A stretch of DNA of 64,000 nucleotides, from positions 744,001 to 808,000 of the forward strand of contig NW_027590137.1 of assembly GCF_964213995.1 (NCBI RefSeq), given 5' to 3'. The position numbers were made by a program, and so were the translations under genes. The number at the start of each line of letters is the position of its first letter. Position 1 is the first letter of the stretch. The stretch comes from Mustelus asterias (Eukaryota). Below, piece after piece: positions 4,639 through 42,376 of the stretch. The notes beneath the pieces are model-generated. The model ran no database searches. It saw nothing but the letters and a program-made list of their open reading frames with translations, and had not been told where the DNA came from.

Positions 4639-6831
4639 TTCTGATTGGAATCCCCAGGACCCTCCCGTAAAACAGAGGGAGTGGTGGCAGAAGGAGAAAA
4701 AGGATAAGGATGATAAAGTCTGGGTTCTGATTCTCCGAGCCCATGTAAAATAAACAAAATGAGTGAACCAGTTTATAAAGAACAGAAGTTACCCATCCCT
4801 AACAAAAACTGATCAAATAAAAATAATTAGGTTGAGGAATATAACAAAAAATTTAAGAGATGAAGTTTAAAATGATTTGTTTTGTTTTAAACTTGTGTAA
4901 AGTGATGTAATTGTGTGCCAAGTTTTTGCTGCTCACTCCCCATCCCTTTAGGTTCTGTAGAAAAGTTAACCCTTTCAGCAGACAGTTCATTTGTTTTTAA
5001 ATCGCCAAAAAACTTGTGTCTATTTTAGTTTATAATTGAAGATTTATGGGGGGCTAAGATGGGCTTTTGACATTTTTTAAGTATAAAAAAGTGGTCTTGA
5101 GAAGGCAATTTGGTAGAGAGAGGTGGAGGGAGAGATGTTTACAGAGAGGTGTTGAGAGCTGTTGGTTTTACAAGTTATCCACGTTTTTGGAGCGGTCACT
5201 TCATGTCCTGGTCTGAGAGGGATGGAGAGAAGTCTGTTCAATTGTTAAAGTTAAACTTTCTCTATTAACTGTTAATCGACACTCTGTTTTTTATCTTTCT
5301 GACTTGATACATTTTTAATGATTAATAAACTTTCTGAATTCACCATTTAAAGTGTTCTTTCTTGCCACATGGTCAAGACACTGGAACCTGGTGTGATTTA
5401 CGATGAGGGAGGTTTTTGTAAACAAGAGAACCCCCATAAATCTTAGTTCAAATAAATCAAAGTTCTTACAAATGGAATGCAATCTTTTATTACGAGAGAA
5501 ATTGACCGCAGAAGTAAAGATATTATGCTTCAGTTATACAGGGCGTTGCTGAGACTGCATCTTGAATACGTGCAGTTTTGTCTCCTATTTAAGAAATGAT
5601 ACAAATGCATTGAAAGTGGTTCAGAGGAGGTTTAATAGATTGCTTCCCAATTCTTGACCCTCACAGGATATATTTTGTCCGATTTTTCTTGTCTTCATCT
5701 CTGACAAAGAGTAATCCTGACTCAAAATGTTGCCTCTATTCTCTCTACAGATGCTGTCAGACTTGCTGAGATTGTCCAGCATTTTCTGTTTTTGTTTCAG
5801 ATTCCAAAAACAGCAGAATTTTGCCTTTATACTGATTCTTGTTCGATAAGGGCATCAAAAGTATCAGGTATAGCACGAGAACGCAACACAAAAAGATCAG
5901 CCATGATCTAAATAAACGGTGGAGCAGACTCAAAGGGCCAAATGGCCAATTTCTGCTCCGATGTCGAATGTTGGTCACAAATTCCTGAGAATTGTGAAAC
6001 AAGGCTGGAAGATTCGCCTTGCTTGTGTGAGTGGGAAAATGTCCAGGAGAACCATCACTGTGAAGGACAGTTCTGGGATTAAAGGTTGTCAGACTGGAAA
6101 AGGAAAACAATGGAAATAAACCCTTGAGGAGTGAAAAATCACTTTGGGCTGGTTTTTGGAGAAAGAGTGTCAACATTCCAAGGCAGAGTAAAATATATCC
6201 ATTGAGTGGATATTTAATGGTGTTCAGAGTAAAAGGGCAAAGTTTAATTTTACAGTTTAAGGACTATGTTCCCTTCAAAAAAGTGTTTAATCATTGTTGC
6301 CTCCAGTTTGTTGGAGTAAACATCAGAAAACTTGAAGTTTTGTCATGTGAATCTTTAATTTGTTTACTGGGTTCAGAATTCATTTTTAAAAATTGTTGAT
6401 CATCAGAGATCCTAACAGTTCATTTAAAGCCACACGTTTTGACTTCCCATTTGAGCCTGTGGCACCTTTCTGTCTCTCTATTGCTCGTGTCAATGACAGC
6501 CAGGCGACGGAGCTGAGGGCTGAATTTAGCTGAGAATAATGGGGCCTGCGTCCCAGTTGGGAAACTGCCCTGGGCGTCGCACTAATGGAGAGACAGGAAA
6601 GTGTTGGAGGACTGAGTGGGAAATGGGCCTCCAACCAATTGTTATATCAGTCACTCAGAACTAAAGAGAAACCTGTCTCTTTAAATACATATACAGGGAA
6701 GAGGCTGCACTGAAATCTGCCCTTCAAACCTGCACAAAAGCAGGAGGCTGAGATTGACAGGCTGCAGGAGGAGTCCATTCAGCCCATCATGTTCTGCTAT
6801 CTCTTTGAAAGGACTCTGATTCATCCAACTG

Positions 6832-33125: not shown

Positions 33126-33901
33126 TCTTACGCTGATAAACAGAACCAATAATTCACTCTCCATGTGAGTCACAGGGACCTTCCCAAGATATCAGAAAAA
33201 AAACACAACCTCAACAAGAGGTGAGCAACATTTGAGGAGTTATATTAGTTTATTTTAACTTGCATTTGTGCTATCGCCGATCTTCTTAAATCTATTCCAT
33301 TTTGTTAGTTCAGTTGTTGCCCTTGGATGAAGTTTCCGTGTCTCTAATATTGAGCAACTCGATCCCCATCTCCCCAGACAGTTTCTGAAGTCTATTACCG
33401 CGGCCTGGTCACTGGGTTTATTTGATCCGAGAGATGTGCTGCTTCCGAGAAAGTGTAGACACAATGAAGAAATTTCACAATGAAGTGACTGTGATCATTT
33501 AAATAGACATTGAGCACAGAATTCCCCCAATGACCAGTGAACTTCAGAATGTTTCCGTAATGCTGTTTTGTTACTATAAGCAACCCAGAATTTGCAGCTG
33601 CTAATTAACAGAGCAGGGTTTCATCCCCGCAACCCCATCCGGAAAAGTGCACCCGTTCCCCTATCGAGGTGCTGAAATCAGCTCGGCTCGAGGGATTTCC
33701 TTTCGATATCAGCCAGTTCACAACTGAGAGATCTCACAGATTCATAGAGACACAATGATTGAAGTGGCAGGATACTGGACACACTTGGACTGATCACAGG
33801 TTAATGAGCAATCTTGCATAACTGACAGTCACATTATGGCTGCATCTGCCCGCGATTCTGAGCAACCCGCAGCAGACAGGATTTTCAACCTATAGTTAAA
33901 G

Positions 33902-34395
33902 GCAGTTTTTTCAGGGGTCACACTGCTTTCCATCACTGTGAGTTTCAGCGAGAGCGCAGTAATACAAGGCAGCGTCAGTCAGCTGCAGACCCCAGATGGT
34001 CAAACTGGTAAATTTACTCCATGCCTGAAGTTCTCCAGAGAAACGGCTTTGAGCGAAATCTGCTACATCGTCACCAAACATCGAGTTCTTCCCCACTGTA
34101 ACACAGGGTGTTGCCGGTACCAGTGTAAATTGTAGTTGCTCATTGTAGTATCATAGGTACAGTTTAAAGTCACAGTTTTTCCTTCTGTCTGTTATTCTGA
34201 GGACAGCGACTGAGTAACAATCTCCATGACCCAGATCTGAAAAACATGTTCGAACGGAAACAGATCAGACCGACTGAATCCGTAAAATTCAGTTCAAAAA
34301 CAAATTTGTAAAATTAAAGTAAATATGAAATGCGTTTGGTCCATAATTCCCTGTCAGGAATGTTCCCGCACAATCCAGAAGCTGAGTAGCAGCAT
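33902..34395 (-). pseudogene. TCR delta/alpha-like V pseudogene with decayed leader and RSS (V1)
   Basis: Leader MLLLSFWIV from 34395; VTQSLSSE*QTEGKTVTLNCTYDTT..LHWYRQ, frameshift, DFAQSRFSG..LQLTDAALYYCALAET; CACAGTG 33940-33934, nonamer-like GAAAAAACT after a 21-nt spacer. Confidence 0.85.
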
Positions 34396-34908
34396 CGTTG
34401 TTGTCTGCTCTGTAAAAGTGGAGTTGGATATTTGAAGACACCCTTTCCAAACTTCACCCTGTATATTTTGCTGTCGTGTCTCGGAATGCTCTCACTGCAT
34501 TTCCCTGTATCCGCGGTGGTGCTGTGGAGTTGGTAGCTGATGAGCTGTCTGCCAGTGAATGGATTCACCCCGAGCTGGGTTCACTCAGTGTTCTGATAGG
34601 GCGAATGGTTTCCTAGTTAGACACGTGGGAAGAGATTTGTAACCGGAAACATGGGGTCACTGATGGGGTTTATTTATTCCGGCTTCAATTCTTCATCTCC
34701 GATTCCAGTAGAATCGATGCCAGTGAATGTGGGCGGATAAAACCCGAGTCTCAGCTTCTTTCATCAGTTCGACAGAGAGACGCCTCAGTTGGACACGAAG
34801 CAGGCGTTTGACTCCTTGTAAACTCTTCCGAATATTAAACCCAGGTCCTGGTTCCAATCTGAACTCCTTGGACAACTGCTTCAGCAGAAATTTCATGTGA
34901 TCTGAAAA

Positions 34909-35280
34909 ATGTTCCGAATTCACAGACTCTGTTTGCTGTGTTTCGCTCTGACCTGCACTGGGGTGACTGGAGCAGATGAGGTAATGCAGCTTCCTCGGCG
35001 GAAGGTTGTTAGTGAAGGGGGAACCGTATCCATGAACTGCACCACGACCACTACACTTAACAACATATATTGGTACAGACAGTCCCCGAATCAGCCACCC
35101 CAGTACCTGGTGATGGCCACAAGAGAAACCGATCAACGCGGGAGGATCACTGCCTCAATCGGCGGAGGCAGCAAATTCAGCGCCCTGACTGTGAGAGACG
35201 CCGGAGTTACAGACACTGCCACCTATCTCTGCGCCGTGAGCCACAGTGTGACAAACATAGGGTGAGCCCATACAAAAACC
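34909..35280 (+). CDS. TCR alpha-like V segment, intact, leader apparently fused in frame, perfect 23-RSS (V2)
   Basis: MFRIHRLCLLCFALTCTGVTGA-DEVMQ..VSMNC..IYWYRQ..DTATYLCAVS; CACAGTG 35242-35248, 23 nt, ACAAAAACC 35272-35280. Confidence 0.92.
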
Positions 35281-36742
35281 TGCACAGACTGCGAGAGCAA
35301 GTCTGCTGAGTCCGGAGTATCGGCAGAGTGAATGGAATTATAAAAAGTCCATTAACAAAGGAAATGAGCGCAACACAAAATAAAATATAGAATCTAATTA
35401 TTAAAATTCGGTCAGAAATGAAGAGAGATGAAAACAGAGATGGAGAAGAAGAAAGAAGGAAGATGTAAACCGCAATGAGCGAGCAGCAAATAGAAATAGA
35501 AAAGTTTAATCTTCATAGGAGAAGTGGACAGAAAATGAGGAAACCATCGAAAGGGAAATGGAAGAGACTGAAAAGCACTGATTTTGATGGACAGATTGAA
35601 GATCAGATTAAATCATTAACAAAGAGAAGCTTTAATAAAGCAGCGTGTGATTTTTCCAGAACATCAACATTTACTTGCTATTTCAATAGTTGAATGGTCT
35701 GAAACATGTCACCGAAAGACCGGCCACTGGAAATTGCCCTATCGGTAAATTTGGGCTTTGCTCATTATCCCGACTAGGAGATTTCACATTAACTTCATTG
35801 CAGTGTTAATCTAAGCTTCCTTGTGACATTGGTGAATAAATTTTGCAACAAAAACGGAGAACAAGCTACCGATGGTATTGAACAGATGCAGCACCTGAGG
35901 TTTATTAACAACGACGCAGATTTCAGAACACAAGCGGACACGTGTAACCCTGTACACATCATTGTTGAGGACACAGTTCAAACACTTGGATCTGTGCAGT
36001 GACTCTTCGTTCCTTTAGCGTTAATCTCAGACACAATGTGTAAGACAGACTGGGAAAGATGAAGTGGGGATGAGAGAGAGAGCACAGTGCTCAGCGGAGA
36101 CTTGAGCAACTGGGGACATTTTCAATGGAGCTGCAATTCTGTTCAGAAGTGGTTGGCAGACTTGTACCCAATCGGAGCAGGTTTGGAAAAGGTTGAAAAG
36201 GAACTGGTCTCTCAGTGCGTGACTGGATAGCGGTATTTCTGGTGATCTTTATTAAACGGAGGGAGAAGACTTTTGTGTTCTGTGCAGTCGGCTGCTAGAT
36301 GGTTCATGCTAAACTGTAATGGGGACAGAATCTATAAGTAATTTGCAGAGACAAGTGGATAAATATTTGACCAGCAAACTGAAATTTTAAGTATATAAGA
36401 TACATCGAATGCAATCTGCTGATAAAGAATAAGTGGGGAACCCATCAACAGAGACAGTACTTGAGCAATGAGCCGAATGGTCTCTGTTAGTGCTACAACT
36501 GTCTACGATTCTAAGATTATGAACGGCTCTTTTCATTTAGAAAGGCACCAGAGCACAGCCGTTATGAAACAATTTACTCTGTTGTTACACACAGGAAGCA
36601 GATAGTGGTGACACGGTGGCTCATCAGAGTGTAAAGCTCTCGCCCCTCCTTCCCCTCTCCACCACTCAGAGGCTAGGCCTCGGCTGCAAGTACCAGTCTA
36701 GAAATGAGACCCGGACTGATCCTCCTGGGCATCTTCATCAAC

Positions 36743-42078: not shown

Positions 42079-42376
42079 GCGGAATATGTGCAGTAACTCA
42101 GTCTCTGGTGCCGTTAACTGTGCAAGAAGAAGGTTTAGCGCAGTTCGATTGTGAATAATCAGACCAACTATGCAATTGCATCAGCAGAAATAGGCAGAGC
42201 ACCCAGGATGGGTAATTAGCACTAAAAAAAATTAGCACTGGGAAAGGGAAAATCTCAGGAACATTTGTGATGGCTGTTGACGAGTCTGGTTCCTCAGTAT
42301 AGGCGGCATGAGCGCGGAGGATGGAACGGCCGATTACTATGCTGTGAGGCACAGCGTCAGGAAAAGCACATAAACC
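42079..42376 (+). pseudogene. Decayed TCR V pseudogene (V6)
   Basis: TTTACAG acceptor, AVTQSLVPLTVQEEGLAQFDCE*, ..GATTACTATGCTGTGAGG, CACAGCG 42350-42356, 11 nt, ACATAAACC 42368-42376. Confidence 0.72.

Follow-up and report, generated by a model that had tools for sequence, protein, structure and literature searches.

The available text of PMC12227049 describes a split leader for all antigen-receptor genes. The closest described exceptions are chicken TRAV1 (V-alpha-1) and TRGV1, in which, according to the accessible portions of PMC10972964 and PMC8456604, leader and V lie in one exon. TRAV1 comprises 48 genes, 12 of them pseudogenes, and its layout is called unique in the accessible part of PMC10972964. 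Marsupial TRMVj also lacks the leader intron; the available section of PMC2275272 proposes retrotransposition for this gene, with genomic intron deletion as the alternative. For sharks, the full-text literature searched, which leaves most subscription papers on shark TCR loci beyond reach, contains no report of a single-exon V gene. None is mentioned in the available parts of PMC5931798, PMC5278385, PMC12698447, PMC2193156 and PMC10322711, and the word 'intron' is absent from the main text of PMC5931798 in its available form.

Here we describe an intact shark TCR V gene that starts at position 34909 of a 64-kb stretch of DNA, analysed over its full length (the window), together with the family to which it belongs. 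The gene lies on the forward strand in a stop-free open frame, 34909–35244, with a 22-residue leader in frame with the V domain. The first part of the fused leader (34909..34960, 17 codons plus one base) occupies the place of a separate leader exon, and the first base of the second part (34961..34974) corresponds to the start of exon 2 in a sister clade of split-leader genes. The V domain (34975..35241) has its first Cys codon at 35038, Trp at 35071 and second Cys at 35230. It is classed as TCR alpha/delta type on its Pfam V-set match (E=1.9e-11), on PDB matches that are mostly TCR alpha chains among the 60 listed, and on the nearest atlas clusters, which are TRAV (0.96–0.97). A 23-spacer recombination signal follows at 35242..35280; its sequence, CACAGTG-23-ACAAAAACC, is the exact consensus and the sole exact match within the window, and none of 100 shuffles yields one. 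Frame, domain and signal bear out the preliminary description, which had claimed an intact TCR V with a leader fused without an intron and a perfect RSS. Protein database searches found no relatives of the gene, a result that is uninformative for a vertebrate gene.

The forward-strand segment 34810..34908 is a probable 5' UTR. Probable-RNA contigs of a relative, organism A, align from 34830; 20 further, more diverged contig letters match the family's own 5' flank, and upstream of the UTR there is no contig depth on to 34556. Inside this segment an out-of-frame ATG-TGA lies at 34895–34900, 14 bases ahead of the start, and most other copies of subfamily A have ATG-ATC-TGA at the site matching 34895.

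Similar to chicken TRAV1 and TRGV1, as these appear in the available sources, the shark genes are unrearranged TCR V genes with ATG, leader and V in one open frame and a 23-RSS behind, amplified into a large family. The chicken genes belong to a bird rather than a shark, and we assume that the two layouts are independent in origin. A large single-exon family of TCR V-alpha genes is well supported as real, and its kind is already known from birds. TRMVj is likewise a TCR V without a leader intron, but it is pre-joined to D and J and its RSS is gone, whereas the shark genes remain unrearranged and dependent on RAG, and an intact RSS stands behind the 34909 V. The supporting V of NAR-TCR has no leader of its own and is entered through a splice acceptor; the 34909 gene has its own ATG and leader and no acceptor. 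Split-leader antigen-receptor V genes, the sister clade included, share with the single-exon family the V-set domain, the 23-RSS, the 14-base second part of the leader and the genomic field, and differ from it in their phase-1 leader intron.

The preliminary description had also offered an alternative, in which the 34909 copy is a pseudogene whose CAG acceptor mutated recently and whose pyrimidine tract translates as an open leader by chance. The setting is of the kind this predicts: the gene stands among zinc-finger genes (102 C2H2 finger motifs in the window), within a 10-kb island whose other V segments are broken, and 22 of the 71 family copies counted below are broken. Against it, the phase-1 acceptor position, 34959–34960, reads TG, without AG. 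Between −75 and +12 of the mature start, AG occurs only at −49 (phase 2), −2, +1 and +6, each preceded by at most 8 pyrimidines in 15 bases, and 33400–34900 contains no candidate leader exon (ATG...GT).

A census of the genome bears on the same point. A DNA search of the gene's own genome gave 42 matches; in a protein search the best 150 of 1270 candidates were scored, so all family counts are lower bounds. With flanks fetched and duplicates removed by coordinate, the set holds at least 71 family copies on 40 contigs, some of which may be alternative haplotypes, and 16 sister copies; L103–L105, where the junction was lost by deletion, were left out. The acceptor AG for phase 1, expected directly before −14 of the mature domain, occurs in none of the 71 family copies and in all 16 sister copies. 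An in-frame ATG lies at −21 to −24 codons in 67 family copies; the other four have AAG instead and are also frameshifted. The leader is open in 66/71 family copies versus 0/16 sister copies, and 49 family copies combine an open leader with an intact V by the script's criteria. In every sister copy a leader exon of 19 codons is followed by a GT-AG intron (166–189 bases), in phase 1 and at the position matching the family junction, and this canonical split leader is found in 0/71 family copies. The intact 34909 gene is therefore a member of a large family and not one odd copy. Recent decay of this copy is extremely improbable and is rejected: no family copy has the AG, the position of the ATG is fixed across subfamilies, no leader exon lies upstream, and contigs of organism A run contiguously across the junction, one of them joined to a J segment.

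The head-to-head neighbour of the 34909 gene at 33886..34395 on the reverse strand, part of a duplicated cassette, is a broken V of TCR alpha type, in which a leader intron occurs together with a frameshifted leader, GG at the donor and stops; an organism A contig there skips 174 bases and has 60 letters in between, a pattern consistent with a spliced leader. Phase-1 AG acceptors are present at the neighbours at 34188(−), 37511(+), 38267(+) and 39655(−). The earlier statement that neighbours have a normal phase-1 leader intron therefore stands for the acceptors; their leader exons or donors look decayed. Another broken V at 42080–42376 carries an RSS with an 11-base spacer (CACAGCG-11-ACATAAACC); a deletion has probably shortened what was once a 23-RSS.

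In a tree of 66 rows and 86 columns, the single-exon family forms one clade (92/92, below the starred level), the sister clade is supported at 99/94 and the two together at 97/91; one family copy was entered twice under 'other', which is the source of the tree's '2 changes'. The simplest reading is one intron loss at the base of the family. Protein identity to the 34909 V is 57–67% for the four subfamilies; the sister clade is distant, at 45–51% protein identity. As the loss predates the split of the four subfamilies, the 34909 copy arose by segmental duplication rather than as a new retrocopy in its own right.

Several features indicate that the leader is maintained as coding sequence. First, leader identity between subfamilies A, B/C and D/E is 63–83%, close to that of the V (70–80%), and identity over the 65 bases upstream of the leader is only 42–58%. 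Second, a stop occurs in the leader of 1/71 copies and in the 66 bases before it in 55/71. Third, dN/dS is 0.71 for the leader and 0.69 for the V, a weak comparison because the copy pairs are not independent. The leader has a basic N-region, a hydropathy of 2.1–3.2 over 9 residues and a Gly/Thr/Cys C-region, with small residues at −3/−1 in the 34909 copy. By rule-of-thumb criteria it fits a predicted signal peptide, and its 22 residues would be cleaved as one.

Expression was followed in four runs of organism A from one study, available as contigs only; the runs are presumed to be RNA, none is recorded as such, and X1/X2 and X3/X4 look like duplicates. The contigs are 85–94% identical to the 34909 region and together cover 34830–35241 with overlaps, and they derive from relatives of the 34909 copy rather than the copy itself. 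Contigs matching 34909–35098, 34913–35098, 34909–35089 and 34922–35089 are ungapped across 34960/34961, with 39–52 letters on the leader side, and no splice joint into ~34960 is found among the joints listed for organism A contigs. The contiguity over the leader–V junction that had been proposed as a check is thus seen in probable RNA of organism A. One X3/X4 contig departs from the genomic sequence at 35241, just before the heptamer, into sequence that reads as a J segment, with one mismatch in 23 to the genomic J clusters. Joining of a TRAV-type V to a J-alpha-type segment is in this way seen through relatives and not through the 34909 copy. A low-depth contig of X3/X4 also spans the RSS and downstream flank (35267–35396), either an unrearranged read-through transcript or library DNA.

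A second locus allows the two gene types to be compared. Contigs cross the family junction of a B-type copy there (X1, 977–1140, gapless; X3, 833–1139, with 6 gap letters). At the sister gene of the same locus, probable-RNA contigs end at 5440 and 5441, where exon 2 starts at 5440, and DNA contigs run on into the intron; no explicit GT-AG joint for this gene is among the joints listed, in a table swamped by repeats. Rearranged TCR alpha cDNAs of nurse shark labelled aV9.1 add a further comparison, within the available part of PMC5931798 and its supplement 3. Seven of the 19 aV9.1 rows (391–394 and 400–402) resemble the family by eye and one resembles the sister clade, and over the first 22 mature residues of the 34909 copy one cDNA is identical at 15. 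Unlike the genes described here, these rows come without leader or genomic structure, and the label also covers unrelated V sequences. In the available supplement, rows 385–403 under this label span at least four unrelated V sequences.

These contigs and cDNAs indicate that the single-exon family is used, and they do so in relatives only. RAG would join the family's 23-RSS to J-alpha, and the resulting transcript would need no 5' splice. The earlier proposal of an intronless V lineage is upheld by the absence of the acceptor from all 71 copies, by the single clade and by the contiguous RNA-type contigs, one of them J-joined. That the shark has a functional single-exon family of TCR alpha-type V genes is, in our judgement, very probable.

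Whether the 34909 copy itself takes part is a narrower matter. It is possible, though doubtful, that the structure is real and the family works while this copy, as a stranded duplicate, never undergoes rearrangement. Consistent with this, no J motif was found in the 64-kb window or in 10 kb on either side, the contig of the copy is separate from the J-cluster contig C71, and a near-identical copy on another contig (99.4% over 3.4 kb) carries a frameshift. Neither Pfam PF09291 nor a motif search located C alpha. Set against stranding are the copy's perfect frame, Cys/Trp residues and RSS, the presence on C71 of family copies that lie as far as 11 Mb away from its J cluster, and the scattered TCR alpha/delta V exons described in sharks in the available text of PMC12227049. 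A stranded copy concerns only the use of this gene and is compatible with the best explanation of the family.

That explanation is that the 34909 gene is an intact member of a large single-exon family which probably arose once, most plausibly by retroposition. On this view a V transcript that was spliced but not rearranged would have been reverse-transcribed and reinserted in the alpha/delta V field. Within a functional family, retroposition to a new site is a tentative reading, not far from evenly balanced. More tentative again is the full scenario, in which a sterile unrearranged V transcript was retroposed in the early shark germ line with its RSS kept and founded the large V-alpha family, one branch of which later took the promoter of another V gene, in parallel to the chicken case and independently of it.

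Retroposition would account for the kept RSS, and the first part of the fused leader has the length of a leader exon (52 bases, with control leader exons at 34–58). The 3' flank offers a further trace, an A/purine-rich tract at about 35335..35630 on the forward strand, which is common to all subfamilies and is a candidate decayed poly(A) relic. Its A fraction is 0.50 at the 34909 gene, where the window mean is 0.27 (sd 0.05) and only 0.2% of 200-base windows reach 0.45. Behind the RSS, the family clusters average 0.44 and 0.51 and 15 other V clusters 0.24–0.36. In all subfamilies the tract starts ~50 bases past the nonamer and is ~300 bases long; it is homologous and alignable between subfamilies and is shortened in the tandem array described below. 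The polyadenylation hexamer, A[AT]TAAA, occurs in its first 150 bases in A and B copies and in 0/11 C and D copies. A dispersed transposon was considered as the source of the tract and is unlikely, since the tract matches almost only behind family copies (37/40 places inspected). As regards the poly-A relic that had been suggested as a check, the A-rich tract is specific to the family, but its longest A run is 4–9 bases and none exceeds 9. The tract could instead be an old remnant of low-complexity sequence or of an intron. We identified no target-site duplication, and the ends of the insertion cannot be delimited for an event of this age.

The 5' flank points the same way. A TGACGTCA-type (CRE-type) motif, which we take to be a mark of TCR V promoters, lies upstream of 16/16 sister copies and 0/63 A/B/C copies, counts that are not independent because all of the flank evidence descends from one ancestral event. 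As far as sequence comparison goes, the A-rich tract and the absent motif lean toward retroposition. The same observations bear on loss of the intron in place, whether through cDNA-templated gene conversion or through an exact genomic deletion, with ancestral promoter, RSS and flanks retained. The gene would function identically under in-place loss, which needs no new insertion to explain why the RSS is still there and the promoter works, and which maps to the exact phase-1 position; the homologous proximal 5' flank shared by A and B/C (E down to 5e-11) also agrees with it. Loss in place does not account for the CRE-type motif missing from all 63 copies, nor for an A-rich tract found only in the family. 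No homology of the family to sister 5' or 3' flanks was found either; given how distant the sister clade is (45–51% protein identity), all of these comparisons have little power. We regard in-place loss as unlikely if the family is functional, and slightly more so overall.

The ancestry of the leader is less decisive. Mean identity of the fused leader is 0.35–0.42 to the sister leader exon and 0.30–0.41 to the sister intron end (z at most 2.1 for each), and an unrelated control reaches 0.41; the L093 exon control was disregarded as mis-cut. As the leader matches the sister exon no better than the intron end, descent from a spliced leader is not established. This equal similarity is what would be seen if the acceptor was lost in the family ancestor and an ATG within the pyrimidine tract of the intron came to start a new leader, then kept by selection, which is the alternative of the preliminary description moved to the root of the family. 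Recruitment is also consistent with sister intron ends that translate as hydrophobic runs and with a junction that is one base off a CAG acceptor in some copies. It is opposed by the absence of a relic leader exon or donor upstream of the 34909 copy, by a profile of sister promoter, exon and intron that matches nothing in the family 5' flanks, and by the signal-peptide-like basic N-region and Gly/Thr/Cys C-region of the leader (a rule of thumb), and it leaves the 3' tract unexplained. Such recruitment is improbable even if the family's function is granted, and marginally more so without that premise.

Subfamily D/E (L051–L054, L075, L087–L092) shows a separate rearrangement of its 5' part. Just upstream of the single-exon ATG, the 5' part of a foreign V has been fused; it lies about 600 bases upstream of the V and contains, from an unrelated V family that has the intron, the promoter, a dead leader exon, the intron and framework 1. 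This flank is ~76% identical to fuller copies of the host V family (L093, L095, L096). Insertion of a retrocopy into a host V exon was considered and set aside, as the host V 3' half was not found within ~7 kb downstream of the D/E copies. The host flank moreover lacks homology to the A/B/C flanks, and D groups with A only weakly (89/68). For these reasons the D/E fusion is probably secondary, and it looks like a later promoter swap.

The family has spread by segmental and tandem duplication. Contig C71 carries 17 family copies and a J cluster; 12 of the copies stand in a tandem array with a period of ~2.45 kb, ~1 Mb from the J cluster. The array (G000:C71:19.36-19.40 Mb; L021, L077–L080, L108) holds at least 12 intact B-type copies, whose differences concentrate in CDR1. 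Its strand is opposite to that of the J cluster at 18.40 Mb, so that the two would have to join by inversion. J-alpha-like clusters of tandemly repeated J types occur at G000:C546:181-237 kb and G000:C71:18.40-18.415 Mb, the former much longer than the stretch seen on C71, which may reflect a haplotype or an assembly difference. Elsewhere, L031 and L032 (C315, C240) are tandem pairs with framework 2 and CDR2 missing from one copy through an in-frame deletion of 84 bases, and L073 (G000:C14:97.89 Mb) is a fragment of the family 3' half on a 107-Mb contig, apart from the other copies.

A split leader counts as a hallmark of antigen-receptor genes; the printed exceptions found, in the available parts of their sources, are those of birds and TRMVj of marsupials, which is pre-joined. 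An expressed family of this size in sharks indicates that even in the oldest TCR-bearing lineage the leader intron can be dispensed with. Single-exon and split-leader genes at one locus provide a natural comparison for the role of the leader intron in expression, in V usage and in the somatic hypermutation reported for shark TCR alpha. Annotation rules that insist on a splice acceptor would overlook or misassign dozens of intact V genes in sharks. Should the RNA route hold, germline V transcripts can seed new rearranging segments, and retroposition would be a source of V genes.
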